From the NCBI GenBank assembly GCA_951406725.2, contig OX597818.1:38502001-38566000 (forward strand): 64,000 nt of DNA, read 5' to 3'. Under the pieces are notes generated by a model. It made no database searches. It was given only the letters and a program-made list of their open reading frames with translations, and was not told the DNA's origin. The translations under genes and the position numbers were made by a program. Shown piece by piece: positions 16,840 to 43,479 of the stretch (position 1 is the first letter of the stretch; the number at the start of each line of letters is the position of its first letter). Origin of the DNA: Octopus vulgaris. Its lineage: Eukaryota.

Positions 16840-16906
16840 GTTTGCAAATACTTTTTGTGTGGGTTTTGTCCTCATGAGTTGTTTGTTAATACAAGAGCAG
16901 ATCTTG
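16840..16906 (+). CDS. LUC7L3: LUC7L3 exon 2 (zinc finger 1)
   Basis: cag|VCKYFLCGFCPHELFVNTRADL(G)|gtgagt, 67 nt. Confidence 0.97.
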
Positions 16907-20265: not shown

Positions 20266-20305
20266 GAAATTGTGAAAAAATTCATGATGATGTATTACGA
20301 AAAGA
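20266..20305 (+). CDS. LUC7L3: LUC7L3 exon 3
   Basis: ccag|(G)NCEKIHDDVLRK(E)|gtaagt, 40 nt, completes CCCH ZnF1. Confidence 0.96.
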
Positions 20306-21182
20306 GTAAGTAATAAATTTTTCAAATTGTGGATTAGTAGCAATAGTGGTGGTGTTCTAGATTTAAAGCTTTAAAGTATTTAGTTTTGTTTATCTTTATT
20401 CTGAGATCAAATTCTGCCCAAGTTGATTTTGTTTTGCGTCAGTAAAACCATTATCAGTAATGCATTTACTTGATTCAGTGTTATTAAGTGAAAAAAAAAA
20501 AAAAAAAAATTTAACAGAGACTGAGTTGATTTAGCAGTTTTGATATAAATTTTTAAAAAATTCTTCTGTTTTCTTATGTGAACTGTGAGAAAATAGAAAA
20601 TTTTAAAGTGTTGCTTGAAATATATTTATATTTCACAACATGGTCTCTTTATTATAATAGACTGTTTTTTTTTTGATTTTTTTGTAACTATTCTTTAAAA
20701 AATGTTATCATCAGAGGAAAGTTTGCTCTTTTTTATGTTTGAATCTGACTTCATTATCTTAAACTAACACATTAAAATTTCTTTTTCATAACTATCCATA
20801 GTTCTAAATAGAAAGTGTATTATGGTGCACATATAATATCTCATATACTAGATTTACTGTTTAAATATCCATAAATTGTCTTTGGGAATTTATAATTACC
20901 AGAAGACAATTGTATTACTAGCCAAAAAAGCAGCTCATGGTGGCAGACTTTTTAGTCTACCTCTTGCAGATGTTGTTGATTCATCAGCCTAAGAATTGAA
21001 GAACTTTAAAAAAGAAGACCTGAGATGGCATCAGTTATTCTTTATTTGCATAAATAAAGTTTATTGTACGAAACTTTGGAAGATTGAGTGAAGTTCTATA
21101 TGTATATATATATCTTTATTTGTCTGTATGTTTGTATGTATGTATGTATCTATCTATCTATCTATCTATATATATATATATA

Positions 21183-21380
21183 TCATCATCATCATCATTT
21201 AGCGTCCGCTTTCCATGCTAGCATGGGTTGGACGGTTCAACTGGGGTCTGGGAAGCCTGAAGGCTGCACCAGGCCCAGTCTGATCTGGCAGTGTTTCTAA
21301 GGCTGGATGCCCTTCCTAACGCTAACCACTCTGTGAGTGTAGTGGCTGCTTTTTACGTGCCACCCGCACAGGTGCCAGAT
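21183..21380 (-). mobile_element. RTE LINE 3'-tail copy
   Basis: (CAT)n TTTAGCGTCCGCTTTCCATGCTAGCATGGG..., matching the 3' end of the LINE at 52843-54835. Confidence 0.9.
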
Positions 21381-21624
21381 ATAATTTAGAGAAAAACTAC
21401 TATTAAGCAATTCAATACAGATGTTACTCACATTATATAGAAAACTTATACTATATAAAAAAACCGTATTTTAAATCAATAAAGTACAATAAACAGTATT
21501 ATTTATTATTTATTGTAATTTATTGATTTAAAATAAGGTTTTTTTATAGTGTAAGTTTTCTATATGGTGTGAATAACATCTTTCTTTATTGACTTGTTTA
21601 ATAGTGGTTTTTCTTTAAATTATA
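21380..21624. repeat. AT-rich fold-back element
   Basis: Imperfect inverted arms of about 115 bp with a short spacer. Confidence 0.8.
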
Positions 21625-21712
21625 TACATACATTGTATATTGTGAAATTTGATTTAAAAATTGTTAAATTGAATTTTTCCCTGTAAGTTTTGGAATTATA
21701 TTCCCTACTATT

Positions 21713-21743
21713 ATGTATATATATATGTGTGTATATATGTATG

Positions 21744-21776
<33 letters not shown>

Positions 21777-21891
21777 ATATATATATATGTGTGTGTGTGT
21801 ATATATATATATGTATGTGTGTGTATATATATGTGTGTGTGTGTGTGTATATATATGTGTGTGTGTGTGTATATATATATGTGTGTGTGTG

Positions 21892-21942
<51 letters not shown>

Positions 21943-22027
21943 GTGTGTGTGTGTATATATATATGTGTGTGTGTATATATATATGTGTGTGTGTGTATAT
22001 ATATATGTGTGTGTGTATATATATATA

Positions 22028-22060
<33 letters not shown>

Positions 22061-22109
22061 GTGTGTATATATGTATATATATATATATGTGTGTATATAT
22101 GTATATATA

Positions 22110-22152
<43 letters not shown>

Positions 22153-22930
22153 ATATATGTATATATATGTGTGTATATATGTATATATATGTGTGTATAT
22201 ATGTATATATATGTGTGTATATATGTATATATATATGTGTGTATATGTATATATGTGTATATATGTGTATATGTATATATATATGTGTGTATATATGTAT
22301 ATATATATATGTGAATATATGTATATATATATATGTGTGTATACATGTACGTATATATATATGTGTGAATATATGTGTATATATGTATATATATATGCGT
22401 ATATATATATGTGAATATATGTATATATATACATGTGAATATATGTATATATATACATGTGAATATATGTATATATATACATGTGAATATATGTATATAT
22501 ATACATGTGAATATATGTATATATATACATGTGAATATATGTATATATATACATGTGAATATATGTATATATATACATGTGAATATATGTATATATGTGA
22601 ATATATGCATATATGTGAATATATGCATATATGTGAATATATATATATGTGAATATATGCATATATGTGAATATATGCATATATGTGAATATATGTATAT
22701 ATGTGAATATATGTATATATGTGAATATATGCATATATATATATATGTGAATATATGTGTATATATGCATATATATATATGTGTATATATATATATATGT
22801 GCGTGTGTGTGTATATATGTGCGTGTGTGTGTATATATGTACATATGAGTGTATATATGTACATATGAGTGTATATATATGTATATATTTGTGTATATAT
22901 ATATGTATGTATGTATATATATATATGTAT
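21713..22930. repeat. compound (TA)/(TG) microsatellite with a 24-bp higher-order unit
   Basis: ATGTGAATATATGTATATATATAC repeated about 7 times near 22409-22580; source of the long Y/I/H/T ORFs. Confidence 0.97.
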
Positions 22931-23368
22931 TTGTTTAACTAAAAGTGGTGCACCTGCATGGCTGCAGTCAAAATGACCAACAAGTAAAAGATGTGTGTGT
23001 GTGTGTAGGTAGATTATGTACTACTCAAGAATTTACAAAACAATCTAATTCATTACTCTCATGACAGAAAGAAAAATTAATTGCAAAATATGTGTTTATT
23101 CTATTATTATTATTATTATTATCATCATCAGTGTTATCAAGACAGCAAGCTTGAAGAATTGTTAGTACACTGGTAAAATGGCTTAGCAGCTTTTCATCTG
23201 TCTTGACTTTCTGAGTTCAAATTCTGCTAAAATCAACTCTGCCTTTCATCCTTTCTACTTTGATAACCCACTTCCTCAAAGTTGCTGGCCTTGTGCCAAA
23301 ATTTTAAGCCTTTATTATCAGTGTTATTTTTGGCAGTGGATTTATATTTACTTATTTATTATTTTAAG

Positions 23369-23507
23369 GTATACGAAAAGTGGTCGGTTTGAAAAAATGG
23401 GATATGAGGAAGAATTTATGCGTTTCCTTCAAACTTTGATTTCTGATGTTGAAAGAAGGATTCGAAGGGGCCATCAGCGCTTAGCCTTGAATAGTACCCA
23501 AGGAACA
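23369..23507 (+). CDS. LUC7L3: LUC7L3 exon 4
   Basis: aag|YTKSGRFEKMGYEEEFMRFLQTLISDVERRIRRGHQRLALNSTQGT|gtaagt. Confidence 0.97.
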
Positions 23508-24125
23508 GTAAGTAATTCAAATTTGTTTATATACCTCTTTTAGTACAGTATAAATTGTTTTCCTAAATATTGCGTTTTTCTTAGAAAAACGGCAGTGTAC
23601 TATTTGTAAAAACGTCTTTTTTTCATAAACATTAAAACCATTTTGTTAGATCTGAAAAATATATTATATAGTCTAGTCATTTTAAATATTTAAGATTTTC
23701 CAGTAACAACTTGTGCTTATGAGAAATGCGATGTGTTATAGTATTAGGAAATATTAATATTTTGAGCTCCAGATGTATCATATTTGTTGAAAAATGCCGT
23801 TGTTTAGGTAATATGGGATGGAAATTGGTAAAAATTATTCAAAACTGAAGAACAAATATAAGCTGTTATTTTGCCCCACCCCACCCTACAAGGAGATCTA
23901 TGGTCAAAGGTGTTCCAACCATAACCAATTCACCTTATTTTCAGATGCAGTGTATCTAGGATTACATTATCCAATGTGCCTTTCTCCTTTTAAAGATGGT
24001 AGGTGTGCTTGGGGGAGATTTGGCCACTATTTCTAGCTGGTCGTGTGTCTAAGTAAAGGCTTCCTCATTGACACATGAATTTCTGGTTAGAGCATAATAT
24101 GCCTGGTAAACATGTTTATAGATTA

Positions 24126-24523
24126 CTAGCAGTATCACCCGGCGTTGCTCGGGTTTGTAAGGGAAATAATTATATAAGCATTTTTAGAGATGTAAAGTAT
24201 AATAGCCATCTCAATATGGCTAGCCACAAAGTGGGGTGTTACTGTAGCTTTTTACATTCTGAGATTTAATAATACATTTTTAGAGAGTTACTTCCCTTAT
24301 ATAATAGCAGAAAAATTCATTAAAAATGGGAAAAAATGATGGTAAATTTTTTTTTAAATCGTAGACTCATCGTAGATGCGCGCTAATACCCAGAAGGGCT
24401 GGATGTGAATCACGACTATAAGATACCCGCTTTTGGTTACACTGCACCGCAAAATGTGGGAGTAGTTAGGAATCTAAATCATAGGAGACAGACACCACAC
24501 AACCTCACTTTTATATATATAGA
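24126..24523 (-). mobile_element. non-autonomous Helitron
   Basis: 5' TC, 3' CTAG, subterminal hairpin CCCGAGCAACGCCGGG, A^T target; sister copy at 35212. Confidence 0.88.
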
Positions 24524-24619
24524 TTTTTAAACATGCTACATGGCTAGTGTTCCTGGTAGTTATAAGAAATAAAGTTTTAGTAGTTTAGTATTTTTCATGA
24601 AGATTTTGACTCCTCGTCT

Positions 24620-25073
24620 TTGTGGACCAGTGCCGGTGGCACACAAGAAAATCATCCGAACGTGGCCGTAGCCAGTACCGCATAGACTGGCCTCCGTGCT
24701 TTGGGGACGTAACAAACACCATCCGATCGTGGCCGTCCGCCAGCCTCATCTGGCACCTGTGTCGGTGGCACATAAAAACACCATCCGAGCGTGGCCGTCT
24801 GCCAGCCTCGTCTGGCACCTGTGTCGGTGGCACATAAAAACACCATCCGAGCGTGGCCGTTCGCCAGCCTCGTCTGGCACCTGTGTCGGTGGCACATAAA
24901 ATCACCCACTACACTCTCGGAGTGGTTGGCGTTAGGAAGGGCATCCAGCTGTAGAAACACTGCCAGATCTGACTGGCCTGGTGCAGCCTTCGGGCTCCCC
25001 AGACCCCAGTTGAACCGTCCAACCCATGCTAGCATGGAAAACGGACGCTAAATGATGATGATGATGATGATGA
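24620..25073 (+). mobile_element. RTE 3'-tail copy with three internal repeats of about 61 bp
   Basis: CACCATCCGAGCGTGGCCGT...GGTGGCACATAAAA x3; ends GCTAAAT(GAT)n. Confidence 0.9.
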
Positions 25074-26814
25074 TTTGTTGTATGTTTTCATATTTTGAAT
25101 TAGTTTTTTTTGTTAATTTCACTAAGTATTTTTTGTTTGAATTTCTTCTGAATACTTTGAATTTTGTATTAAGCAATTACAAATTTTGACGTAAACAAAA
25201 TTATTTTTATAGTATTCGTATTTATTGCTGAAAATAAGGTACCGTGTTAAAAGGACTGGTGCTGGTGCTACATAAAAAATATACTCTATAGAATGGCTGG
25301 CATTAGGAAGGGCATCCAGCTGTAGAAGCCTTGCCAGAACAGATATTGGTGCCTGGTGCAACCTCTGGCCTTACAAGCTTTGGTCAGACTGTCCGGCTGA
25401 TGCCTGTGTGGAAAATGGATGTTAAATGATAATAATAAGGATTACATAGTGTTCATTAGCAAATATCTTGAAGTTCCTTTTTGAGAACAAAGTGGCTAAA
25501 AGAATCATTACAAGAGGAAATAAAGAGAGACACTAGATAAAATAGTCCAGGGTACACTTGGCTGGAAAAAAAAAAAGTAAAATGGATATCTTCAATACCT
25601 TTTGATCATAGGTTAGATCACTCAGGGCTAAACAATAACTTCATGAATTAGATTCTCTTATCATTCATACCAGATTCCATATTAAACATATTCAATGCTT
25701 TCTCATTGGTGTTCCTTGTCCACATGCTCCCACTTCCACCTGTAACAATTCAAACTGAAGATTTCTCAAGTTTTCTGTATTTTTTAGGAAGGACTTTATA
25801 GTTGCATTCACTTTTCTGTTTTACTAATTCAAGAACATGTATTCTATATAAATCATAACAGAACACTGTCTAGCCTATACTTACAATGTAATAAAAAAAT
25901 TATTTAGGAAGGAAAACATTAAGAAAAGATTTCTTAACCTATTCATTATAGTATATTTCTAACTAGAAATACTCTTTCTGTTAAATTGTAAAATAATTGT
26001 GAATTTAGGCTATTTTCATAAAACAACTATAACTTTTTTGTTTATTGATGTATTAAGGTGATGTTTGGAACACAACATAGCAAAAGATTCTTACATAAGT
26101 CTATGATGGAATTTTTGTCTCAAAACTACTTTAATTACAGGTAAATTCAGTGAAATCTAAAATTATTTAAATTTTTGTTTAAATATTACCATATAAAATG
26201 AGTTAGTAGCCTATATTCTTTTGGGATTAATAAAGTTGTAATAAAGGACATCAGGGAATATTGTACCTTCTTGTATTTTTATTTACACTTGAGTGCATAT
26301 AAATGAGGTACACAAAAGTAGATTATCACTAACGAAGCAGAATTTGCCTCTCCGTTTCTGGGTAAATTCAAAACTCAAAAATAAGGCAAATTAGAAAATA
26401 AAGTATTCCAGAATGCTCATTGGAAAGTTATTTCAATTGACCACCCATTGGGTTGCTTTCCATTTCTGGTATTTGCATTCTCAGTATGCTATCTTGCAAC
26501 TATTATGAAGTTGGTCAAATTTAAAAGGATATTTCTATGTAGATTTTTTTTTTCTGAGAGAAAGCCTGTCCTCAGCTCAATTCTGCAGCTGGGTACATTG
26601 CTTTCGTACTCTTAGTGATTTGGTTATTAACAAAATTTTTTAAAAAATGTCAGTACTTATATTTACTGTATATCACAGCAAGTGTTGCTTTCCACCAGGT
26701 TTACCTGGTAAAAGCTCATAGTTCAGTTTAATCAAACTATATTGCCTCAATTGAACTGTTTTGATTGAAGTTTACAAATGATGTGCCACTTATAGCTTTA
26801 TGTGGTTGAACATA

Positions 26815-27090
26815 TCATCGTTTAACGTCCATTCTCCATGCTAGCATGGGTTGGACGGTTCGACCGGGGATCTGGGAAGCCAGAAGGCTGCACCAGGCTC
26901 CGGTCTTATCTGGCAATGTTTCTACAGCTGGATCCCCTTCCTAACGCCAACCACTACGTGAGTGTAGTGGGTGCTTTTTACGTGCCACCTGCACTGGTGC
27001 CAGGCGAGGCTGGCATCGGCCACTGTCGGATTGGTGCATTTTACGTGCCACCTGCACGGAAGCCAGTCGAGGCGGCACTGGCTTCGGCCA
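26815..27090 (-). mobile_element. RTE 3'-tail copy
   Basis: CATCGTTTAACGTCC...CATGCTAGCATGGG family. Confidence 0.88.
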
Positions 27091-28429
27091 TATGGGTAGA
27101 AATTTATTGTGACTCTTGTTTCTACACTCACTAGCAAATTTCCTTTTTGCTGTTGGATTATTTCCCCACTTTGTTTTAATTTTAATTTTTTTATATATTC
27201 ATCAACACCCTCTTTATTTATTTGCATCCTTGTGACATCTGTCTGTTATTACAACTTCTAAAGCCTTTACATACTTGACTAAAGAGAAATACTAGTCAAA
27301 AAAATATTTGGTGTTTATAGTATGGAAATGATGATTTCCCTACCACACCCTATTTCAGGCCATGCTGACTTGCACATTTGTTTTTTTTTTTCTTCTCCAC
27401 AAAAATAAAACCTACGGCAGTACCCAACATCTGTTCATAAGTCTTCCAAATTTTGATACCATATTTTGTTAGAAACATATCTAGCTTTTATACCTTACTA
27501 TCTTTCACTTGTGAACAACCTTTATCATGATTTTCAAGGCTATTTATAGAACTAAAGTGTCTTGTAAAGTGTTCATTAGGGGTTGTATTTTGAACAACAA
27601 GCCATAGTTTCATTTCCCAAATAGTGTACTATTAGTTACATATATGAAAATACTGACTCGGCTTTTAAATACATGTGTGAGTAGCTACAGGTAAGATTCA
27701 TCAGAGCTGCAGTAGTTGGTAGTCCATTGGCCTAGTTTCTTTTATCCATTATTATATTTATGACAAAAATGTCTGAATTTCATCTAAGTATCTGGGACTT
27801 TATTTGTTCTTTTTTTACTCTTTATTTATGGTCTCCATGTTGATTGTCTGGAACACTTACATTGTTAAAAGAAATAGTATTTTTTTTTTATCAATAAACA
27901 GGAACACTAATTACAATGGGAAAGAAATATTTTTAAAAGTTTCACTTCATTCTGCTTCTGTTATCAATTTATTGTTTGTTTTCACTCTTGTTGTTTGAGT
28001 TGTTTCCGCTCTCAGAAATTGATATATAATCATCCACTTGATTATGGTTGTATTTTTCACATGCTGCTGCATTTGTTCTTTCAAAAACACTTCAAATTTC
28101 GAGTTACTGCTCCTAAATCTGAAGCTGGTATCCATATTAGAAAGGGTAGAGAGCATTACAGAAATAATTTTTTAAATGGATGTGGAGAAAAATGACCAAA
28201 ATTTCAGAGGACAAATTGTAACAATATTACAAAATCTTTACCTAGTGAAATCTTGTATTATCACTGATATGAATTTAGATTTAATTGACCAGAAAAATAC
28301 AGGCAGTTTCTGTGGATTGGTAGCATAGGTAGGACAAAAAATGGTCTCGGGCAGTATTGGTAATGAATGTGTTAACTTACATGGCTGTTTTGAAAAAAAC
28401 TTTTATCTGAACTATTTGTTTATCTCCAG

Positions 28430-28507
28430 CCTTCAAGCAATGCTGCTGCTCTGAAAGAAGAAAAAGTTGCCATGTTAACTGAACGGATTAATGATTTAGT
28501 TCAACAG
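28430..28507 (+). CDS. LUC7L3: LUC7L3 exon 5
   Basis: ccag|PSSNAAALKEEKVAMLTERINDLVQQ|gtatgt. Confidence 0.94.
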
Positions 28508-29784
28508 GTATGTACTAATTACACTATCAAGGGTGAGTTCATCTTGTGTATCGTAGAAAAAATAGATTATAGCATTTGAACAATTTTTTGAAGATTATTC
28601 TAGCCTGATGTACAAATTTGTTGTGCTGTAAATAAAAACAACTATAAAGTATTCAGTACGTACCATTGTACTTTTGCTTTTCTCATGGCCCAAAACTTAC
28701 ATCGACTGGTGTCTTATCAAATTGGTTGCTTTGTAAGTGTAGGTATTCTTTTCAGTAAAATAGTTTGTATAAATAATACTTGTAACTGTATTGATTACTC
28801 TAAGCTAGAAACAGTATGATAAACATTTTAGTCAGTTGATGAGAACATCCGTATAATTTAATGTTTGTCTTAACTTTTATAGAAATATCCTATAGTTTCC
28901 AACTGAATGTTGTCTATCTATGGAAATTGAGTTATCTAGCTTAATTTCATTTGAAACTTGAAAGAACCGACAATAGTTTTAAATAGTATTCATATTTAGA
29001 TTGAAAACTTATTTTTTTGCTTGAAGTACCAAGAATAGTTTGAGAAAGCTTAATATTGAAGTATCTTCATTCAATGATTCAGAAATTTATTAACCTTAAA
29101 TTTTTACAATCCAGTTAATGAAATTAAGGTAGTGGCTTGTTGAGAAGATTAGTATTAAGTTTGTTCATGTCACATTCAATTGATTACATCAGCTTGATGC
29201 CAAATAACTGCTCAATATTATCTTAATTTTTAAAGCAGTGAGCTGGCAGAACTGTTAGCATGCTGAGCAAAATGCTTAGCAGCGTTTCATCTGTCACTAC
29301 ATTTTGAGTTCAAATTCCACTGAGGCCAGTTTTACCTTTCATCCTTTTGGGGTTGATGGTAAATGATTTAATCCCTCCCTTGAAATTACTGGCCTTATGC
29401 CAAAATTTGAAATCATTATTATGTTAATTTGTTTTAACTACATGCACAGAAGAATTGTTCCTACAAACTGTTTGTAGTCTTTGTTCAATTCAGCCTAACA
29501 TATTTCAGAATTAACTAAATAAAAAAAAAAATTATGGCTTATATATATGAAAAATAAGTAATAGATTTTGTTTATATAGCAGTATATTACATGACTCCCT
29601 CTCTTCATAAATTTCTATCTATCTGTTCGGCTGATTTGTATCAGTGTCAAACGAGTCTGCATTGTTATCAGACATTTGAATATTTCCTTTGCACTGATAT
29701 GAACAGATTGCTTGTATCTATTCTTAATAACCTCTTCAAGTTACATTGGATTTATTTTATTGCATTTGTTTTTTATTTTCTCAG

Positions 29785-29880
29785 GCAGAAAATTTGGGTT
29801 GTGAAGGAAAAGTTGAAGAAGCTCAAGGTGTTATGAAATTATGTGATTTACTAAGAGAGGAGAGGAAAGTTTTAGAAAAT
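29785..29880 (+). CDS. LUC7L3: LUC7L3 exon 6
   Basis: tcag|AENLGCEGKVEEAQGVMKLCDLLREERKVLEN|gtaagt. Confidence 0.96.
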
Positions 29881-30030
29881 GTAAGTTGAAAATAGTCTTA
29901 TTCTAATAAGAAATTTATATTTTTGAAAGATTTTCTGCTAAAATACCGAACAATTGTATCTTAACTTTTTGCTCATTTTTATGATGTTTTGTATGACATT
30001 TTACAAATGGAATTTGTTTTTTCATTTTAG

Positions 30031-30204
30031 CAAACCCGGCAAAACAGTCAAACGCCAGAAAGTGAAAAAACCATGGAAGTGTGTAATGTATGTGGTGCAC
30101 TCCTTGTTGTTGGAGACATTCAGCAGCGTATTGATGAACATATCATGGGAAAACAGCATTCTGGTTATGCCAGGATCAGAACGTATGTTGAAGAAAGAAA
30201 GCAG
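30031..30204 (+). CDS. LUC7L3: LUC7L3 exon 7 (zinc finger 2)
   Basis: ttag|QTRQ...MEVCNVCGALLVVGDIQQRIDEHIMGKQHSGYARIRTYVEERKQ|gtttgt. Confidence 0.96.
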
Positions 30205-31063
30205 GTTTGTGGCATGAGAACATTTTTAGTTTTTGTAAAATCATTTCTATTACATATGTAAAGAACTCTTCAATGTATTTGTCTTGAAATTTATATTTTT
30301 AACACTTTAATTTAGAACAAAATTTCAAGCTTGAAATATTTTGGAAAATACATTTTAATACTGGTATCTAAATGACAGACCATTCTTTGCTCATATAAGT
30401 AATTTCAGTAGTAACCACTAGATAACTAATCAGGATATTTAACAGTTTCATACACAAAATGGTAGTTTTTTTCATATTTAAAAAGTATTACCATGTTCAG
30501 TGTTTTGCTATGCATGCTCTTATGATTTTCCTATACTGAATTGGAACAATGTTAACGAGAAGCAATTATTTGAGGAGACATTGTTTCTCTCCCATTCATT
30601 TGTAAAAACCTTTCCTACTGTCATTTGTTGCAAACTGAAGTATGAAAAGTGAGTTGTTAATTTTATTGGCTAAGCAAGCAGCAATAATAACAAGTTAAAA
30701 ATTAACAAGAGCAAAAAACTGTTTTCCAGTCATGTACTGTTTTTATTAGAGCAAAATGCAGTTGAATTTGCTTCAAAGAAAAATGAAGCCACTTGTCTAT
30801 TGTTCATCAAAATAAGGCTTTTCCTTTCGTGCTACTTATTTTTCTAACAGACTTGAATACTGCATCTATTTAAAAAAATTAACAATTAACAATTAAAAAT
30901 TTAAATTGTCCTCTGGATTTATATTGTTTAACCTGTGCTCTATACCCATCAATGTAATGATAATTTAGAAAAGTTTAAATGTAGTAATAAATAATCTTTG
31001 GGAGAATCAAATATTTTGTATTTGATTATTTCTATTAATTATACTATTTGTATATTATATTAG

Positions 31064-31275
31064 AGAAAGTTACAATCTGCAGAAGAAAGAGAAGCTCGAC
31101 TTGTCAGAGAGAAAGAAGAACGTGAAAAAGAAAGAGAGCGGGAAAAAGAGAAAGAACGAGAAGAGAAACGTAGGAAAGAAAAGGAAAGGGAGAAAGAAAG
31201 GGAGAGGCAAAGAGAACGAGAAAAAAGACGACGGCGTAGCCGTAGTCGAACCAGGAGGAGTAGAAGCAGAGAAAG
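31064..31275 (+). CDS. LUC7L3: LUC7L3 exon 8 (RE-rich region, start of RS domain)
   Basis: ttag|RKLQSAEEREARLVREKEEREKERER...RRRRSRSRTRRSRSRE(R)|gtaatt. Confidence 0.94.
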
Positions 31276-32974
31276 GTAATTTTGTTATGACTTGAAGTCT
31301 TCTCATTATCATTTCAGAGTCTGTTTATACACTGTTATGGGTTTCACTGTTTTGTCTGTATCACATCTATCCGTAATTTGGGGTCATTTGTTTATTATAT
31401 TTGTTTTAGTTACATCTATTTATGTTTGACTTCATTACATGTATCTATGTTTACTTTGGTCTACTGCTACAATTGAGATCCTCTCCAGCATCAGCACACA
31501 GCAACTTTTCATTAAACATTCAAAACAAATTATCAAATATATTCAAATTAACTTTTTTAAAAGAGTGTGCATTTTGCTCTAGTATAACCATCTCCTACAA
31601 TATTAGAGCATAATTTCAAAGGACACAAAACTGATAATTTTTCTTAGCAATGCAAATGTTGAAACAGTTTCCTACAGAATTATTGACTATCAGGTTTGAC
31701 TATTTTTGGCAAAGATGATTTTCTACCAAGTAGGATTGTAATTGATCCCATTACAGTAAAGGTTGTATAATATACTGTACAGAGCCTAACATCTCTGATG
31801 CCAGTATCCAGTCAATTCCAAATCCTTTTGAAACAGTAATTTCTTCATTAAATTATGGCATTCAAGCTCTGTTATAGCCCTAGCATTCTAGTGGGCCATT
31901 ACTGTTATTTGCCAGATGGAAAAGTAGACCAGTTTGTATTAATTGCCCGGGTTAATACAGATGGAGATGTTAGTTTAAGCTCCCAGCATAATATTGGTGG
32001 GAATATCCTTTGACTTGAAATTCATATGCAAAGTTTCCTCAAAAATTGATGTCTAGGCATGTTCCTAAGATATGCTTGTAAGCTACTCTAGTCTGAAAAT
32101 GTTTATTTGTTAACATAGAACCAGATTGCTCTTATAAATTTAAGTTTGATGACATATTGCAGTAGGTACTTGATGTAAAAATCTTGAATGCTTAATCTAT
32201 TTTACACTTTCCAGTTGGCTTGTGGTAATCAAAACACATTCCACAGTTTTATCACATGATACCTCACACCTGACTACATTTGCAGAGGTTTGTCAGTACT
32301 TTGTGGTTTTACGTACTATGCTTTGCTGATGAGGGCTGCTAGTGCAAGCAAAACTTCATGTACATTTATAAGTTAACTTCTGTGAGGCTCTACTCAAATG
32401 CTTATGTGTCTCTTTTTTTCTAAAGAATCAAGTCCTGAAGTTTAAACTTCAAATGTGCTTTGCTCCTCTGGCAGCTAAACAAATCACCACTGAATGGGCA
32501 TCATTCAAAGACAGTTTATGGTAGTCTGCAAATATCTTAGCTTGGTCACTGGCCCAGAGAAAGGCAACTTCAACAGCTAGAACAATTCCATCTAGCTAAC
32601 CAAGGAATGAAAGCTCATGAAACCAGAACATCCAGTTATAAAGTGTCAACAAGACAGACCACAATATAAAGAATGTAGGACTGTAATAAATATTGGTAAT
32701 AGATAGGCTCTGATATAAAAAGTTTTCCACTAAACTGAAATATTATCTTAGAAATATTGCATTTCTAAATCTCTCAGAGAGACTTATACAGTAGCAGCAT
32801 GATAAAGTGATGATTTGTTGCCAACTTAATATGGCAATCCCAGGAAAGGGATGAGTGCTACTGTTATTTAGCCCAAGGAAGCATCGTTTCCAGTTAGCTA
32901 CGTGACACAAGCATTCTGTGTCCTTAAGTTTTCAAACAGGGGAGATAAGTACCTCCACCCAGCAGAGCCAGCCA

Positions 32975-33015
32975 CCAGAGACTAGTTTCAGAGTTATTAC
33001 TCTTCATCAGTCTGG
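32975..33015 (-). ncRNA. minimal type I hammerhead ribozyme
   Basis: Minus strand CCAGA-CTGATGA-AGAGT aata ACTCT-GAAA-CTAG-TC-TCTGG: stems I and II fully paired, complete core, GUC cleavage triplet. Confidence 0.85.
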
Positions 33016-33679
33016 AGTAGCTTGGCTTGCTAGCTGTCAGTGCTTCTTTGCATTTGAAAACTTATAGAATTTCAAGTGAAATAAATTCACTGATCTACAA
33101 AATTAGAAATATTGCATTTCTAAATCTCTCAGAGAGATTTATATTTTATTATTCCTAATCATAATAATGATAGAGTAATCTGTAGTAACTACAGTAGAAT
33201 CAGCTTGATTAATCTTTCTTTGAAAGTCTTTTACCATCTCCTCAATCATTTCTGCCATGCTAGCACTGCATATTTTTAGCATCATAGCATTAATAATAAT
33301 TATCATAATAATACTTATGGTGTTTTCCCAAATAAAGTGAGGTTTGAGCCTAGTTCTGAGTTATAGTCAGTGTTATAACTTCATTGGCCTCTTTCAATGT
33401 CATCCTTTATTGATTAATGCCATTTGTCTTTGTTGTTCTTTTAAACCTATATATAGTTAGGTGTTAAATTTAATCACAGTTTGTATCAGCTTTGGACCAG
33501 TGGATTGAAAATTGCAGAAATGGTGTTAATGGGAAGTTTAGGAAACTTTTATTCATTAGCAACCCCCCCAAAAAAAAAGAAATTAAAAAGAACTAAATAT
33601 ACATTTGTAGCATTGATGTAGATCCTATTAGAAATGAAAATGATACCAATTTGAGCTTGAAAAATAATATGAGGAAGCA

Positions 33680-34043
33680 TGCTGATGGCACACAATAAGC
33701 ACCATTCATGTGTGGGTTGATGCCAGTGCTGCCTGACTGGCTCCCCATGCTGGTGGCATGTAAAAAGCACCATCTGAACATGGTCAATGCCAGCCACTCC
33801 TCCCCGACTGGCTCCTGTGCCGGTAGCACATAAAAAGCACCATCCAAGCATGGCTGATGCCAGTGGCACATAAAAAGCATCCGCTACACTCACGGAGTGG
33901 TTGGCGTTAAGAAGGGCATCCAGCTGTAGAAACCTTGCCAGATTTGATTGTAGTCTGGTGCAACCTCCTGGCTTGCCTGTCCCCAGTCAATCCATCCAAC
34001 CCATGCCAGCATGGAAAACTGATGTTAAATGATGATGATGATG
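33680..34043 (+). mobile_element. RTE 3'-tail copy
   Basis: Same family; ends GTTAAAT(GAT)n. Confidence 0.88.
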
Positions 34044-34415
34044 AAGGCAGCTAAGAATGGAAGATATGAGAATGATATTTTGTTTGTATGTATCCATACA
34101 TGTGGACACACTGGCTATTAATTTAACACATTTAAGACCACCAAATGAAAAAAATCAAATTTTTCTCTAGTCAAGGGCATTACTGTTTCCTTTACTCCAT
34201 CAAGCTGGAAATAGATTCAACTCCCACTTCACATTTGGGTTCTTTGCAGTATGAATGTCATCAAATTCTAAAACCTTATAATACATTGTCCAAATTTGAA
34301 ATACTTTGCTGTTACCTTGAAAAAAATGGTATAGTATGTTGTATTTTCTGGATTAGTTTGGTTTAGAAAATCAAACCTCAAAAATTCATTAATTTATTTT
34401 CTCTTGTATTTTTAG

Positions 34416-34819
34416 GAAGAGACGTTCCAGAAGCCATGGTCATCGATCTCAAAGATCAAGTAGTAGAGAAAAACATAAAATTGCTCGTCGGCATCGTTCA
34501 CGGAGTCATTCTAGTTCTAGAAGCCATTCCTCTCGTCAGTCAAATCATCATAGAAGGTCTCGGAGTAGAGAATTTAAACATAGATCAGGTAGTAAAGAAC
34601 CCAAATACAGATCACGGAGTCCTGATTCTAAAAATGGCTCACCTAGCTATGAACTAAGTAAATATCATTCAAGGAGTCATGAACTTAAACATCGCTCTGG
34701 TAGCCAGGATTCAAGTTATCGGTCATTCAGCCAAGAAACCAGGCAGTACTCAAATAGTAATGATTCAAAGCAGCGACCAGGCAATAATTGTGACAGGAAA
34801 ATTTTATATTTAGAAAATG
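34416..34819 (+). CDS. LUC7L3: LUC7L3 exon 9 (RS domain)
   Basis: ttttag|KRRSRSHGHRSQRSSSRE...RKILYLEN|gtaagt; open across 404 nt in the required phase. Confidence 0.92.
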
Positions 34820-35211
34820 GTAAGTTATAATTTTGATCATCAGATAAAACACTTTATAAATTCTGCCTCAGTGCAGCGAACTATTAATTTTGTCATTTTT
34901 ATTTATTGAGCTATTTTGTGGTTTATAGCTGACCAAATTGGTAGGATGTCAGCCTATTGGATTAATTTATGCTGAGCTGTATTCCTGCTAAAGACAATTA
35001 ATTCTTAGTTTACCTAATTATATATGGGTGCTAAATAGGGATGCAATTTACTGTTATAAGACGCAAGAGTGCTGTAATTACATGTTTATTAGTTGGCAGA
35101 ATGTACACGAATATTCTCCTGTTTATGATGTGGAATGAAATTTGTCTGGCTGACTTAAAGTAGATGTATGATATGAATGCATAAATCTTCATACTTGTAT
35201 ACTATATAAGA

Positions 35212-35609
35212 CTAGCAGTATCGCCCGGCGTTGCTCGGGTTTGTAAGGGATATAACTATATAAGCATTTTTAGAGAGTTATAGCCAAAAAATAGCAAAAA
35301 AATGCACTAAAAATGGGAAAAAAATGATAGTAAATTTTTTTTTAAATCGTTGACCCATCGTAGACATTTTTAGAGAGTTACTTCCCTTACATAATAGCGA
35401 AAAAATGCATTAAAATGGGAAAAAATGATGGTAAATTTTTTTTTAAATCGTAGACTCATCGTAGATGTGTGCTAATACCCAGAAGGGCTTGATATGAATC
35501 ACGACTATAAGATACCCGGTTTTGGTTAAACTGCACCGCAAAATGTGGGAGTAGTTAGGAATCTAAATCGTAGGAGACAGACACACAACTTCACTTTTAT
35601 ATATAAAGA
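35212..35609 (-). mobile_element. non-autonomous Helitron
   Basis: TC...CTAG termini, GC hairpin, A^T target; closely similar to 24126-24523. Confidence 0.88.
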
Positions 35610-37050
35610 TTTACTACCGCTCACAAGATTAGTAACATATAGATTTGGAACCTTACTTTTTGGAGCAATAAATTAAGATTTGAAATAAGTTGCTTTGCAT
35701 TAGATTTTAAATATGTTGTAAATCCTTTTGCAGAAACTTATACACAATATATATCATGAAATAAAAATATGTTCTTGAAGGCATATTAAAATACTTAGGT
35801 ACTATAAATCTCTAAGAATTTAGAGAGCTAACACTGCTACCTCATTACTGCACTGTTTTCTTTTGAATGCTTATTATTTTTGCTGTAACTAACATTACTC
35901 CAATGAAGTTTTACCCAAATTGAAACAGTACTAAAAAGGAAGTATCGAGAAATAATTAGTTTAAGTATAGTGGATGAGATATTATAGAGGTGGTTGGAGA
36001 AATGTATGTGTTCAGGTGGAGATGTTATTGAGAAGAGTTGACATTATTCAAAAAGTGGATGGTACTCTATTGAATGTAGTTATCCAAAACATGTGAGTAA
36101 TATACAAGTCAAATATACATGCGTTTCAATTATGCTTATTTTATTTCTTTCTATGTAGTTGTGAAATTGGTCCCTACAAACTAAGGACCTTATTGTTTCA
36201 TGGTATTTGATAACTAGTGGTAATTATGTTCATGACATTGATTATATATGAATGTATGATCTCTGGGAATGTTGCTCTGGGAAGCCACTATCATCCATTA
36301 TGAAAATCCTCTTTCTTTGTAAAGTTGGCTACACATGTCAACATCCTTTTGACACCTTCATCTATTTTCCAGTAATCCAACTCCATACTGAGCTTGGTTT
36401 GGTAGCAGTTCCTTAGTAATCAAATGCTCATTGAAGTAAACAATGCATTGGTTCCTGGCCAAATGTATAAAGTTTACACTAGTGGTCTAGTTTCAGATTG
36501 TTTTGGCAACTAAAAGACAAAAGTGAGCTAAGCCTGATAGGTTGAGTACTGAAATGTTTTATGGCTGTTATGCAAGACAATCTTTAATGAAATATTATCT
36601 CTATATGTAATTAATCATGTAATTAATCATGTAACCATCAAGAAAGTTTGTTAAGTCTAGCATTTGCATGAAGTATGTTTTCAATTGTGTTGAACATGAA
36701 TTGTGAAATTCAAAACCTTTTTTCATGATGTGTGATGTTTATGCTTTGGTGCTATACAAAGACATCAATTATGTCAATATCTGTTGAAATAAAAAAAAAC
36801 AAAAATACTCTTTACGTTTACAGTATTTTGGATGTGTCTTGCATTTTACATTTTTGTAAATTTTGGTTTCATAATTTTCTGTGATTCCTTTATTGTATAA
36901 AATCTATTTAAAGCACAAAATTGTACATAATTTGTATACATGAGAAACACTGAAAACTTGACCAGGAAATATCACAAAATATTGCAATTCTTAGATCATA
37001 TAAATCTATATCTTTAGAGCTTAGGTATTCCAATTTTATTTTAAATCCAG

Positions 37051-37205
37051 ATAAGCAGTTAATGTACAACGATGACAACACCCAGCATATGGAGATGATG
37101 CACTATGATAAATATGAAGATGGTGAAATTCCATCAGACAGCCGTGCTGATATTGATGATAGTAATGAAGAGACTGGCACACATTCTGAAGGTGACACTA
37201 AATGA
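37051..37205 (+). CDS. LUC7L3: LUC7L3 exon 10 (acidic tail, stop)
   Basis: ccag|(D)KQLMYNDD...YEDGEIPSDSRADIDDSNEETGTHSEGDTK*; phase fits; summed CDS is 1470 nt. Confidence 0.85.
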
Positions 37206-40200
37206 ATGATTGATCTAGCCTGCTTCTGATCAACCCATGCTGGTAAGTGACTGTCTAATGGTTTACCTGATCTTGCTTTCAGCTCATTCAGAGGTAAGTG
37301 GTGACCTCTACTGGCATGCATCCGTCCGTCTGTCTATTTGTTCGTCCATTGGAGTTGAGCAAGAGACACCAAGCTAATAGACGGCAGCCACTCAAATATG
37401 TTGGTCTGTAAACTAAAACAGACTGTCATGGCACTTCTAAACAATATACTTGGTAAATGTCATCAGCACCTACTGTTCCCTGTGCTCCCCCACCCCTTAA
37501 ACCTGTATTCATCCTTTAGTATATTTAATAGATTTTCTTCCTGCCATTATAGTCCCATTCATGGATCTGTGTTCAAGGTCGATAATGAATTGGCTGATAA
37601 TCGAAGAACTGGTAAACATATCTTAATCTGTTGCTGCTTGTAATTTTTGTTAATGATAATGTGTGTGAATGAAGAATGCTTTGATATTGTCCATAATAAT
37701 ACTGGTATCGAATTAAGATAATTCTTAATAGTGATGTCATCAAAAGGGATAATTGTGTTACAGTTCTTTTTCATTTTGTGGAATAGGAATTTTGTAGTTT
37801 TTAGAAAAATAATCACAGAAAATACTAACATCAATTTTACTTGATTTGAAAACTGGTAGAATTACAATAATTTTATTTTAACTTAGCTCAAGCTCGACTC
37901 ATTTGAGGAGTGTGGGAAAAGCACTTATTCCTTCAAAAATTAGCCAGATTGAGTTTCTTAATTCATTTTTAGTCTTTCAATCTCAATTTCTCTAATTACT
38001 CAATATAGCATTGACATTTTATATATTTCATTTTAATATCATTTGATGTCTGAAATGAATACATGAATGTTGTGTAATTTAAAGAAACGGTTTCTTTCTT
38101 TCTTTTACACATAACATTGAGTATAGGTATGAAATATAAGCTAGCCAATGTTTTGCTATTCAAACTTGACTGCAAAATCAGATTAAATTAACTCTTTATG
38201 TTTACTTCCAAATAATTAAAAAAAATCTCCAGTTTGAGAATGTCTCTGAAACATAAAAATGTGTACTTGAAAAGAGCAATATATTTTATTCTAATAAATA
38301 CTTTAAGCATAGACTAAAAACACCCCCAAAACTTAGATTTTATCAACTTTCTTATATAATAGTTATTTACTGCTCCATCAAAATAACTCTGCTGGAAAAA
38401 AAAAAATTTACAAAAACCTACATCAAAACTTGATTTTATAAACAAAGTAAAACTTAGTCACTTCACTTTTTTTCTTCTTTTTAAACATATTACAAAGTTT
38501 TTAACCACTGCATCAATAAACATGAAAAAAATCTGGGTTTAATGTTATTTGTGAATGGGGCCTTAATATTTTATTTTCCTGCACAGACACCATCATCATT
38601 CCAGTGGTTTTATTATAAGCACATGCCTATAGTCTGACCAGTTTCTTTTCTGATACAGACAGATTTCTATTTATGCAGTTCTATCAATCTTTGTCAGCAC
38701 CATGTTTGAATTGCTCGGTCGCCAATGTTGAGAGCATTGCTTTGACTACCAATCTGTTACATGAGACCACGGTGCCTCAATGCTTCCTCGACACCAGTGA
38801 TGCTTGCCTCTCTATACAGGTATTTCTTTGGTCTTAGATAATTGATATGTAAGCGGCTTCATTTATACTATCTTCCCTGCTGAATTCTGTTTTGTGCAGA
38901 TTTGTATATATTTACTTGGAGAAATAAAATTCATTTCCATGTTATGTTGAATGTATGATTTAGGTTGTGATAGATGTTTTAGCCAAGAGTGTGTGTGTAT
39001 GTTTGCGTTCATATACCAGCAACACACTCTAAATTGCCTTATTCTGTGTTCTCATTAGCAGAAGAAATATAAAAAAAGATGAATCTGAAATATATGTTAA
39101 TGCTTCCACGTTGGGGATTTACACTTTCTCTTTCAGATCTTAAGGTAAGTGAAAAGCCAGGATTCTGATAGTGTATCCTGAGTTGATGGCCTTCTGCATT
39201 TAGAATTAAAAGGGAACAAACTTGCAAATGTAACAGTATTTAAAGATAGGTAGCCTGAGATTTTTGGAGTTGAAACAAAAGAATCATTTCCTTTGGTTTA
39301 TCTACTTACATATTTAATTTCAAGATATATTCAAATAAAATATTAGCTTCGAGTAGTGTATCAGTTGAAATGGATATAACCAAATACTTTAGATTGAAGC
39401 ATACTAAAAGAAGTTATGTAGTATCATAAATTATTTCTGTGTAAGAATTGTTTGACATGAAATTGTATTGTTAAAATTCTTTTAACAAATTACAAAAACA
39501 ATTTATCGTAGAACATACAGAATGATTTGTTATTACAGTGGCTGGTGGTTAAAGCTTTGAAGAACTCACTTTATGACCATCAAATCTTGAGCCATTGGAC
39601 AGAAATATAACAACTTTACTTACAGCAGTTGCCTGCTTAATACCAGGCTCTATTCCTACTTTGTTGGGTAGGTACACTACCTAGTTGAAAAGTACTTGTG
39701 CTAACATGGGAAAATAAATATAAAGCTACATGAAGATGCTGATATTTTGAGAGAAATTCTAATTATATTTTAAAGATATATTTTCAAAATTTATTAAATA
39801 TTTCATGTAATTATTCAGTAATAATTTTTTTCACATAATTTATAGTAAAAAGCTCCATTTATAAAACATGGGCACCAAGCATTTAACTGATGTGACAAAG
39901 CCTTGAATTTTATGGATAGGCTTTTCAGTGTGCTTTTCCTGCTTAACTGATAGATATTTTGTAATCGGAAAAGTATGTCATTTTCATACTGTGCTTTAGT
40001 TTGTCACTTAACTATGCCAGCATGGTAAAACCAGTGCAAGATTGCAGCTGAGACTAGTTTGAAGGATTACAATAATATTTCATCTTAAATTGGTGCATCA
40101 TTCCCTGTTTGTTCCTGAAAGTATTATGCTGGTTTCACTCAGGCTATGCCAGCCACAAATGCATTAACTATATCAACTCGATACTCATCAATCTGCTGAT

Positions 40201-43200
40201 ATCAACTTCTTTTTACAGCATTTTCTGATTTTCAACCACAAATGGCTCAAAACTTATTGCAATGTAGATTGCTTGCTAACAGCTGTTGTCTTTGTTCATT
40301 TTCATCTATTGGTATGAGTACAAGTTTGGAGTGTATTGGCAGCAGGCAGAGAACAGTTTTATTTGAGGTATGGCTACATTTATTCTGCTCTGTCACACTG
40401 AAGATAAGCAATCCTAATGAGGAGTTTTCACTCACCACTTCTGTAGTCCGTCATATTCCATTGATGCCCCTTGTTCCCATTTTTGAATTTTCTCAAACCA
40501 AGATTTCGATGTTGCAGTCACAATCTCGTCATATTTTTCTGCCAAAATAGAGTTTTGAGTTGATTACTCTATTGGCATAATAATATTGGTATTACAAACT
40601 TTTTTTCATATTGAAACTTTCAGATTAAATTCGAATATTAGAGGTCATTGTTTGATTGAATTTTTTTTTGCAGTTTTGAAGAATTTGCATGGCTTTTTTT
40701 TTTTAAATGTATGAAAAAGACATGTTGCCAATTTCAATTTTTCTAGATATTTTAGTTTTAACAGGTTTGATTAATTATTTCTTGATCCCTTTCTTTTAAA
40801 TGGGCATATGCTTATTACTAGTGCTAATTTCTATTTTACTGTATATCTATTTAGCTCTAGTATTTAGCTATTCTTTTTCTACTGATGATTTCATAATGTA
40901 AATTTTATTCAGTTATTGACTGGCCAGACTGGTGATAAAGTGAAGGATATTATTACTGAAATTAGTTATGTATATTTATATCACCACAAAAACTATTTGA
41001 ATATAGTTACACTAAATATACCTGAAATTTTACACATGCGCGCATGCACACACACACACACACAAAGTTTTTTATAAATTAGAATGTTGTTTTCCTTATT
41101 AGCATAAACCAACCTTTTGAAAGTTTCATTTTTTTAAAAATTTCCCCATTGATTATTTAATTTACTTTTCAAAATTATATTACAAAAGTCTACTTAATTG
41201 GGTTCAGAATTGGTCAGAATTGCTATTTTGTAATAATCTATCAAAATTAAATTATTTATTTCAATTTTATTTATTTATTGGTCATTTTTTTAATCTTTTA
41301 ACAGTAGGGCATTTTTATAGTATTTCTTGGTTCAACAACTTCAGTTTCAATAGGTTATTTGCATGTGTTGACTTCAACTATGATATATTCTTCACACTTT
41401 CATTGTTTCCAAGTTTTAGTAAAACTATTTAAATGTAGATAGTTGAAATGTTCCCTATATGAAAGCTGAATTACTAGTTGTTCATCACTGGCCATCATGT
41501 CTTTTAGATGGTTTGTATTAAAGGTATTCTCTTGTTACCAGCTTTCTACTCAATGTTTGCTGATCGTGGGAGTGAGTACTGCATGTATGGATTTGATGAG
41601 CATACAGAGGTTAGTGCAGCTTTCTCTGGCCAAGCGTTTAAAGACATTGACTGACTGACTGCTGGGGGGTGGTGACAGTACATACAGACACCTTCCCTGT
41701 ACCATCACTTTTAGCGTAATTCAATCTGTATCCTTGACTGAAAATTTTGCGCACTGATTTATTATTGAAATATCTTTACGAATTTTTTTTTTTTTTTGAA
41801 AAAAGAAATGCATTTAAATTATTGCCTTACATTATATGGCAAGATTTTTTGAGAAGTACTTTTAAAAAAAAAAAAGTTTAATACATTTATTATTACTACA
41901 TTTTTATTAGTAAACAACAAGCATACAGCTGCCTCTTAAAAAAAAAAAAGTATTAGTTTCAAATGGTAAACTGATAAAATTCTGATTCCTCCCTGCTAAT
42001 TGGAAATTTCCTCACTCACATAAACCAAAGAATATTGTTGACTAATTTTAACTTAGCTTATTTGGGCAAAATATAAACTTATTTTGTCATTTATTTTTTC
42101 AGTGACTCTAAATAATAAAGAAAACAAACTTTTGTATTATAATTTTTTTTTAAAATATTAGATGAAAGGTTTCTTGTAAAAATTTGAATGACAAGTATTG
42201 TTTCATTATCATCATATTTTGTTTTAAGTATATCATGTTTTGTACCTAATTAAAATCATAGAATTAAATAAAAACTGAACAACAAATTTAATAGTTTTTT
42301 TTTTATTATTATTTTCCAAACCATTTATTTTTCTTTTCATTTTCAATCAATAGAAAATATTCTTAAATTTTCTGTTGGTATAGATTTATTTTCTGTATTT
42401 CCTGAAACCATTTTTGTTTTTCATTGCTCTGAAAATTGATAAAATATTTCCTTCAGATATTACTTGACCACATTTTTTGTGTTCATTAATAAAATTTGCA
42501 ACTTAATGTATATATTTTTTTCCTTATGATCATTTTTACTCAGTACCATTTTTTAATCTAACAAATGGTGTTGCAAATTTAAACCTGATAAATTAAGAAT
42601 ATTTGTCTGTCATCTCTTAGCTTCTCATTATTCATTTTGTTAGATTATTCACACAGTTTTTTTTTTATTCAGATGGCAATTATATGGGAGCTGTATCTTA
42701 TAGTTGAATTTTTAGTCTTATGGTGATTTACAAATTTCTAAAAAAATTTGAATTTGTCTTTCATAACAGCCAATCAAAAAGATATTTCTTTTTGATTTGA
42801 GCAGGAACTATTGTTTATGCTAGAACGTGTGGTGTGCAATGAAGGTGTTTGTTTTTAGATTGTGTTGACATATGTTAACTTTCATAGATGATTGGATGAT
42901 ACTTATTTGAAGTTTCTTCTATTTTTCTCTTGTAGTGAAATGACAGCACCACCGCCATTTGAACTGTGTTATTTCCTTTGCTGTAAACCAGTTGAAACAG
43001 TCCTGATGATGAGAATAGTGTCATTATTAAGATAATCAACACCTTAGCCATGCCAGGATTGAAACCAGCTATTCAAATAGGTATTTCTACTTAAAAAGAA
43101 CCAGAGGTATGTGAAATAGGTACCTACTGTCTCCTCCTCTTATTCCTCACTGTAGTGTCAGATGGTTGTTCCTGTTTTTCCTCTGGTATATAACTGACAA

Positions 43201-43351
43201 CTGCTCTTGCTGCTGTTCTATTATTCACTGGTTAGAATAGCACTCCATGCAGTGTAGTCTTTTCATACAGTTTTGACTGTTTCTGTCCATTCATTTTGTT
43301 ATAAATGGTCTTGCTAATTTTTTTTTTAATGTATTTCTTCTATAAAGAAGC

Positions 43352-43357
43352 AATAAA
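43352..43357 (+). terminator. candidate distal poly(A) signal of LUC7L3
   Basis: AATAAA followed by a U-rich stretch at the end of the transposon-free 3' region; another AATAAA lies at 42267. Confidence 0.4.
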
Positions 43358-43479
43358 ATACATTTTGCTCTTTTTTATTTATTTGTTATGCTTTCAATGA
43401 TTTTGGAGAAATTATCGACCACTTTTACAAGAATTGTGAATAAATTTTTTAATAAATCTGATCATGTTTATCGTTCTTA

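Follow-up and report, generated by a model that had tools for sequence, protein, structure and literature searches.

In ARGLU1, spliced, retained-intron, and predicted nonsense-mediated decay (NMD) forms are governed by an ultraconserved cassette in a detained intron, as described in the accessible text of PMC5389617. Feedback exons are known for two members of the LUC7 family, LUC7L and LUC7L2 (PMC11842720, PMC11648925), and the key paper, as far as its accessible text goes, found none comparable for LUC7L3. Here we describe a cluster of splice sites around the stop codon of the luc7-like protein 3 (LUC7L3) gene of Octopus vulgaris, in a 64,000-nucleotide (nt) stretch of contig OX597818.1 (the window, i.e., the whole stretch of DNA that was analyzed). 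The cluster comprises a 5' splice site within the last codons (donor 1), the used donor of an intron in the 3' untranslated region (3' UTR; donor 2), a short intron candidate, a microexon candidate, and a further 5' splice site (donor 3). Comparison across lineages argues strongly that donor 2, the short intron, the microexon, and donor 3 form a real and deeply conserved splice-site unit. With somewhat better than even confidence, we propose that the unit is a conserved unproductive-splicing cassette within the 3'-UTR intron that would act, like that of ARGLU1, through NMD and/or retention.

The proposed cassette resembles that of ARGLU1 (PMC5389617) in belonging to a splicing-related gene and in being conserved within a retained intron. 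It differs in that the ARGLU1 element is a long block of vertebrate sequence in a coding-region intron, for which feedback has been shown, whereas the LUC7L3 unit follows the stop codon, every form codes for the full protein, and conservation takes the form of splice-site spacing, from molluscs to insect-like animals. The decoy exons of SF3B1 intron 4 and OGT intron 4, as presented in PMC6097662, are similar in that a conserved cryptic acceptor-donor pair lies in a retained intron of >1 kb and its joints are unseen in normal RNA. Those decoys measure 29 to 200 nt and lie inside the intron, whereas the LUC7L3 microexon measures 0 to 19 nt, lies 40 to 68 nt from the intron's own donor, and has a putative decoy role. 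Ultraconserved pseudo-5' splice sites (PMC13100119) are likewise short donor-like motifs that are shared by distant animals with little flanking identity and are not seen cut; unlike the present unit, they come without a paired acceptor or NMD geometry, and LUC7L3 has 0 occurrences in the accessible part of that report's table file of conserved sites. The LUC7L poison exon and LUC7L2 alternative exon 2 (PMC11842720, PMC11648925) belong to the same family and have a proposed role in self- or cross-regulation via 5' splice-site choice. In contrast to those exons, donors 2 and 3 of LUC7L3 are near-balanced (+1, as scored below) and lie in the 3' UTR.

Feedback through a 3'-UTR intron is itself familiar. 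In SRSF1, SRSF2, hnRNP A2/B1, and TDP-43, splicing after the stop codon decides between stable and NMD-sensitive messages, and it is the splicing of the intron that creates the NMD signal. At LUC7L3, the default splice is predicted to be safe; the signal would arise if splicing shifted by ~50 nt to a second donor, and the microexon would be the rescue.

A splice-site unit after the LUC7L3 stop codon

The initial annotation had described three donors, a 40-nt intron, and an 11-nt exon around the stop codon, and all of these were present at their positions (Table 1). From the cut at donor 1 to the last base of the TGA stop, there are 14 nt. Branch-like motifs in the short intron lie 16 and 28 nt from donor 2, and the 10-mer around donor 3 occurs once in the whole 64-kb window. 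According to the donor balance score defined in the accessible text of PMC11842720, donor 1 is of the exon-side type (−2), and donors 2 and 3 both score +1.

Table 1. Features of the octopus LUC7L3 locus and spacing of the post-stop unit by lineage. A slash within a motif marks the cut. Spacing is given as stop to donor 2/short intron/microexon/stop to donor 3 (nt), computed for one locus per group.
Feature or lineage	Position	Strand	Description or spacing
LUC7L3 gene, octopod	11684..43460	+	Start codon to approximate end of distal 3'-UTR exon
Last coding exon	37051..37242	+	Codes ...H-S-E-G-D-T-K-stop, plus 37 nt of 3' UTR
Donor 1, AAG/GTGACA	37189..37197	+	Last exon base 37191, within S-E-G-D-T codons (E-G-D)
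Stop codon TGA	37203..37205	+	Read from sequence
Donor 2, CTG/GTAAGT	37240..37248	+	Exon end 37242, +37 nt after stop; used donor of 3'-UTR intron
3'-UTR intron, 5693 nt	37243..42935	+	Removed in some contigs, read through in others
Short intron candidate, 40 nt	37243..37282	+	Pyrimidine run, then CAG; acceptor AG 37281-37282
Microexon candidate, 11 nt	37283..37293	+	Read from sequence
Donor 3, GAG/GTAAGTGG	37291..37301	+	Exon end 37293, +88 nt after stop
AATAAA, candidate intronic polyadenylation signal (unspliced 3' UTR)	38515..38520	+	Read from sequence
Second microexon candidate, 8 nt, with full-consensus donor	39137..39144	+	Read from sequence; inside 3'-UTR intron
Distal noncoding terminal exon	42936..43460	+	Takes donor 2 joint in 4/4 runs
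Window (octopus)			37/40/11/88
L041, clam-like			24/57/8/89; 83-84% to named venerid-type proteins
L044, resembles mollusc/annelid-type sequences			33/282/8/323
L045, resembles mollusc/annelid-type sequences			40/59/8/107
L046, resembles mollusc/annelid-type sequences			30/68/19/117
L067, unplaced			38/53/7/98
L049-L051, insect-like			37/46/17/100; L049 72-79% to hemipteran references (range shared with L053)
L053, L054, L055, L057, L058, L060, L061, insect-like (termite-like)			62/66/16/144; L053 72-79% to hemipteran references (range shared with L049)
L019, unplaced			47/46/0/93

The comparison drew on 76 LUC7L3-type loci that one scan recovered from metagenome contigs; the vertebrate 3' UTR was outside it, and genome and viral contig collections contained no LUC7L3 loci. 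A post-stop donor, short intron, acceptor, microexon, and strong donor, in that order, were found at 16 loci, which represent 8 of the 18 other lineages examined. Loci outside the 18 lineages were mRNA-like, too short, or had an unplaced stop. Counterparts of the short intron measure 46 to 68 nt (one, 282 nt), and those of the microexon measure 7 to 19 nt (one, 0 nt). With the window included, donor 2 lies at +24 to +47 and donor 2 plus the microexon reaches at most +54 in eight of nine lineages, and the range for donor 3 by itself is +88 to +323 in all nine. The second zinc-finger peptides of the unit-bearing lineages are 47 to 82% identical to that of the window, and their UTRs can be aligned only at donor 3, where the same or nearly the same donor stands at the same place. 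The conservation of this noncoding arrangement, from clam-like to insect-like lineages, agrees with the earlier suggestion of an ancient RNA-level element. Use of donor 2 is also seen outside the octopus: the mRNA-like, insect-like contig L017 (~91% to L049) has a joint from +37 to a distal exon ~2.2 kb on, which, like the octopus joint, bypasses the microexon and donor 3. An 11-mer of L046 at 4623 proved to be a nonhomologous site, the true unit being at 2958-3045, and L020 and L075, which match unevenly (75% and 98%), were not used as junction evidence.

The frequency of similar arrangements was assessed by scanning for a donor, 35 to 100 nt, an acceptor, an exon of 4 to 30 nt, and a strong donor. 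In the 64-kb window, this strict scan gave one match on the + strand, the post-stop LUC7L3 site, and none on the − strand. Across 401,634 bases of loci, it gave 16 matches on the + strand (13 post-stop sites and 3 others) and 1 on the − strand, a background of ~1 per 200 kb; L041, L044, and L019 fail it (pyrimidine count, intron length, and exon length, respectively) and were assessed visually. A relaxed scan gave 11 control-strand matches (~1 per 36 kb), and under a Markov null the unit arose in 6 of 20,000 composition-matched 200-mers. No such unit follows the stop of the LUC7L/LUC7L2-type paralogue, and the relaxed-scan matches near that gene were rejected as lying in repeats, far beyond its stop. 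A repeat origin of donor 3 was ruled out, the stretch being single-copy in the genome. An Rfam search of the post-stop stretch returned no match, and its RNA fold was no better than that of shuffles (z, +1.18).

Three further observations concern sites near those of the unit. AG/GTTAG (an acceptor followed directly or nearly so by a donor) occurs 89 to 98 nt after the stop at L019 2266-2312, L067 2014, L069 7185, and L070 8960 and 243 nt after it at L029 4229. These loci are unplaced or cnidarian-like, and the sites could represent an earlier, zero-length version of the unit or could be due to chance. The first 3'-UTR donor lies at +60 to +74, past the mammalian NMD limit, in arthropod-like L029, L065, L066, and L053-L061 and below 50 nt in lophotrochozoan-like loci, a difference that may reflect different NMD rules. 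A short AGTGAGTGA stretch is common to L049 (13478-13486) and L053 (4250-4258) and includes a donor-like GTGAG that precedes donor 2 by ~20 nt.

The identification of the gene as LUC7L3, made in the initial annotation, was borne out. Exon 30031-30204 (58 amino acids [aa]) is 100% identical to Argonauta hians luc7-like protein 3, exons of the gene match PF03194, and the LUC7 domain has a second zinc finger of the LUC7L3 type. The octopus genome has a second LUC7 gene, on another contig (G000:C9:36422808-36430741; L078, L082, and L083), with the other (LUC7L/LUC7L2) zinc-finger type. The start codon of the LUC7L3 gene was read from sequence, the reading frame runs unbroken into the last coding exon, and assembled contigs end at 43431-43458; AATAAA occurs in the distal exon at 43352, 43439, and 43451. 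The C-terminal region (34417-34819 plus 37051-37205) is long and divergent, with Ser/His/Tyr-rich repeats and then an acidic tail, and its relatives were found only in two cephalopod-type proteins. A TA/TG microsatellite of ~1.3 kb (21660-22930) lies inside a LUC7L3 intron, and many short interspersed repeats lie in the introns elsewhere. At 26058-26140, between two coding exons, a pyrimidine-poor AG is followed immediately by a strong donor.

RNA evidence and the proposed switch

Four studies contributed one run each to the RNA comparison (4 of 24 listed), over 34300-43500. The four are assembled contigs of presumed RNA, a nature that their GT-AG joints favor. In such contigs, rare or NMD-degraded forms are dropped and isoform shares are unreadable; depth was not used. 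All four runs contain the GT-AG joint 34819 to 37051 and a second GT-AG joint, from donor 2 (37242) to 42936, that removes 5,693 nt. The initial annotation had called for junction use at 37191, 37242, and 37293 to be measured, and only donor 2 was seen in use. Contigs pass donor 1, the microexon acceptor, and donor 3 uninterrupted, and none of the three has a joint in the four runs, which are untreated contigs in which rare forms are lost.

In three of the four runs, contigs extend from 37213 into the 3'-UTR intron, with ends at 38514, 38405, and 42964, the last of which spans the whole intron. The fourth run has intronic pieces from 37369 onward, and one run covers the 3' part of the intron up to the distal exon. 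Because the intron upstream of the last coding exon is uncovered in three of four runs, read-through is special to the 3'-UTR intron. Spliced and unspliced LUC7L3 3' UTRs both exist. As with decoy exons and detained introns, the host intron exceeds 1 kb (5,693 nt) and, on contig evidence, is retained. The initial annotation overlooked this 5.7-kb intron with its abundant read-through, and retention and intronic polyadenylation thereby enter as options.

In mammals, a junction >50 to 55 nt past the stop triggers NMD, and ~40 nt is near the lower limit of intron size. The spacing of the unit fits the NMD rule, since the donor 2 and microexon routes would be safe in eight of nine lineages and donor 3 alone would be unsafe in all nine. 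Splicing from donor 2 to the distal exon would give a stable message, with its junction at +37 and under the limit; this escape had been predicted, and the route is the one used in all four octopus runs and, alike, in L017. Splicing from donor 2 to the microexon and from donor 3 to the distal exon would also give a stable message, with its last junction at +48. If donor 3 were chosen with the short intron kept, the junction would fall at +88, and a message that codes for the full protein would be degraded. The earlier claim that donor 3 elicits NMD is therefore retained as a prediction for this last form and does not extend to the microexon route, which would escape.

Removal of the short intron would be the rate-limiting, regulated step, because 40 nt is near the lower size limit and the first branch-like motif lies only 16 nt from donor 2; in the octopus, it may be slow or impossible. 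Factors at the two sites of the microexon could also engage donor 2 or the distal acceptor unproductively, in the fashion of a decoy exon, and so lead to retention or intronic polyadenylation. The likely input would be the U1 snRNP and LUC7 complement, resulting in self- or cross-regulation. Donor 1 would be an older side door that changes only the last few residues (S-E-V-K or S-E-A-H-S-E) and does not elicit NMD. As a separate observation, adding the second microexon candidate (39137-39144) to donor 2 plus the first microexon would place the last junction at +56, just above the NMD limit; its use was not seen in contigs of the four runs.

Several points weigh against a switch of this kind. 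The missing joints at donors 1 and 3 and the microexon are expected under NMD or a decoy role and equally under no use. Exon-junction-dependent NMD is weak in flies, and a literature search turned up no molluscan study of it. The termite-like loci, with junctions at +62 and +78, depart from the distance rule. The full unit is absent in 10 of the 18 lineages examined, the stops of which were placed by inspection: L029, L065, and L066 have one donor at +60 to +74, L069/L070 have only AG/GTTAGT at +89/90, the donors of L003, L021, and L075 lie farther away, and L030, L037, and L039 have none.

Alternative readings and the C-terminal tail

The alternative that survives best, although we consider it unlikely, is a terminal-exon switch without NMD. 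Clustered U1 sites would choose between splicing to the distal exon and polyadenylation ~1.3 kb into the intron, resulting in two 3' UTRs that differ in stability, location, or translation, and donor 3 would be a U1 site that is never cut. Such a switch would account for the donor 3 site not being seen in use in four runs and for the read-through contigs of two runs that end near the AATAAA at 38515 (38514 and 38405), the latter being a weak hint only, with an A-run at 38396-38407. The accessible text of PMC13100119 gives examples of conserved pseudo-donors that are never used and exert their effect through U1. However, the spanning of the whole intron in one run and the cover of its 3' part in another amount to retention, a lone U1 site would have no need of the conserved acceptor, and the distance pattern around 50 to 55 nt would be left unexplained.

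Less probable still is a stepwise (recursive) or tissue-specific splicing aid, in which the short intron would be removed first and donor 3, or an AG/GT at the acceptor, then used for the long intron, with a harmless microexon and no degradation. The octopus joints leave 37242 directly in all four runs, a 40-nt intron would be a poor first step, and the long intron measures merely a few kilobases. The zero-length exon of L019 (AG/GT) and the microexons of L044, L049, and L053, which start with GT, would suit a two-step removal, as would a microexon route of <55 nt in eight of nine lineages; the microexon of the window starts with CT, so two steps would leave 11 nt in the message.

It is improbable that donor 1 carries the main function, with donors 2 and 3 secondary. 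In that case, an exon-side donor favored by LUC7L3 would swap the tail of the protein or route splicing to regulated downstream exons. Tails were compared among 208 retrieved LUC7L3 proteins of at least 300 aa, which are annotations of related species and hence not independent events. An end of x-G-[DE] plus a few residues, preceded by unalignable sequence, was found in 96 of the 208, from cephalopods, gastropods, venerid clams, a brachiopod, a nemertean, amphioxus, and vertebrates. The SEGDTQSN ending occurs in 53 vertebrate proteins; a further set of 44 vertebrate proteins diverges directly after S-E, and the next residue is always G, V, or E, in keeping with a cut after the first base of the Gly codon. 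The initial annotation had suggested that human LUC7L3 ends in SEGDT and is alternatively spliced there; both features were matched in vertebrate proteins, none of them labeled human, and vertebrate isoforms at donor 1 are already known from database annotation. Conservation of the donor itself is indicated by mRNA-like L001 and L002, which keep AG/GTGACAC despite having Ser or Ala in place of Glu before Gly, and by clam-like L041, which keeps AAG/GTGAAT 2 nt past the stop.

Against this role, use of donor 1 was not seen in any of the four runs, and its use would alter merely 2 to 4 residues. In L041, G-E-T is coded with GGG and no donor, which may mean that the peptide is itself what is conserved. 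With a peptide lacking the donor and a donor lacking the peptide, this locus suggests that peptide and donor 1 may each be under selection. The peptide is missing from oysters, scallops, insect-like loci, and L044-L046, several of which still have the donor 2/donor 3 unit. Other ends were found in 68 proteins, including oysters, scallops, truncated models, and exon-skipping vertebrate forms. In the window, the tails predicted from donor 1 are H-S-E-V-K or H-S-E-A-H-S-E, with a stop in the last exon. Both cephalopod LUC7L3 proteins found end in SEGDTK, and no isoforms with other tails were present.

Two side observations concern the tail. L041 3797-3825 resembles a short C-terminal duplication, one copy having the G-E-T peptide and the other the donor. 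In amniote LUC7L3 (P0103 and P0164-P0201), a conserved extra exon, V-Q-R-K-Y..., is joined either from donor 1 or in forms that skip the last coding exon, and several further tails occur; a coelacanth model has only the first five residues of that exon.

That splice-like words fell by chance next to an ordinary 3'-UTR intron is very improbable: donor 2 alone is seen used and the relaxed scan finds about one similar unit per 36 kb of control strand, but the unit stands at the same place in nine lineages, against the strict-scan background and the Markov null.

Possible LUC7 control and significance

Control of the proposed LUC7L3 cassette by LUC7 proteins is a tentative suggestion that follows from the role of the gene. 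In the accessible part of the PMC8078730 supplement, human LUC7L3 mRNA is about doubled upon LUC7L2 knockdown (log fold change [logFC], 0.97; false-discovery rate [FDR], 0.002) and is not raised likewise upon LUC7L knockdown (logFC, 0.16). The significant-splicing tables of that study, as far as they are accessible, have no row labeled LUC7L3, many rows being without symbols, and the gene name and position prefixes of human LUC7L3 junctions were unmatched in one supplementary splicing table. LUC7L3 mRNA is unchanged in LUC7L2-low leukemias, and productive splicing of mouse Luc7l3 is unchanged upon Prpf40a knockdown (PMC11648925, accessible text). The absence of labeled rows and these two unchanged readouts count against LUC7 control, as does the comparison of donors across lineages: the balance of donor 3 is 0 or +1 in all nine and is higher than that of donor 2 in four, equal in three, and lower in two.

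The initial annotation had based such control on the handedness of the donors. Only donor 1 is clearly exon-sided (−2), and donors 2 and 3 are equal; a strongly intron-sided unproductive donor near +3 facing an exon-sided or balanced productive donor was not found. A handedness switch between donors 2 and 3 is thus weakly supported by their sequences.

Full-text literature, with subscription papers and large supplements outside the scope, yielded no description of an element at the LUC7L3 3' end. Accessible reports on LUC7L3 in translation, genome stability, nuclear retention, heat stress, and condensate homeostasis likewise contained nothing on its 3' end. Mouse Luc7l3 also has nonproductive isoforms, unspecified in the accessible text of PMC11648925, and LUC7L3 is listed among genes with retained introns (PMC7733475, accessible part).

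How splicing is apportioned between the two main 5' splice-site classes depends on the LUC7 paralogues, and loss of LUC7L2 is tied to myeloid disease. With three sites within 100 nt, the LUC7L3 unit is a precise, testable feedback candidate. Conserved noncoding splice elements shared from molluscs to insects are rare, and one conserved as spacing, not as sequence, would escape alignment screens. The distance pattern offers a direct test of the 50- to 55-nt rule in lophotrochozoans, where it seems to be unstudied. Conceivably, the unit supplies the feedback element missing so far for LUC7L3 and is a splice-site ruler that predates the mollusc-insect split, in which an intron of limiting size and a microexon are placed so that two donors flank the 50-nt NMD boundary. 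The balance of LUC7L3 against LUC7L/LUC7L2 on U1 would then decide whether the message survives, and, together with the donor 1 shared with vertebrates, the ruler would close a LUC7 homeostatic loop across bilaterians. The likely outcome of the switch would be that the LUC7L3 message is destroyed or held back, so that the level of this splicing factor is kept in check.

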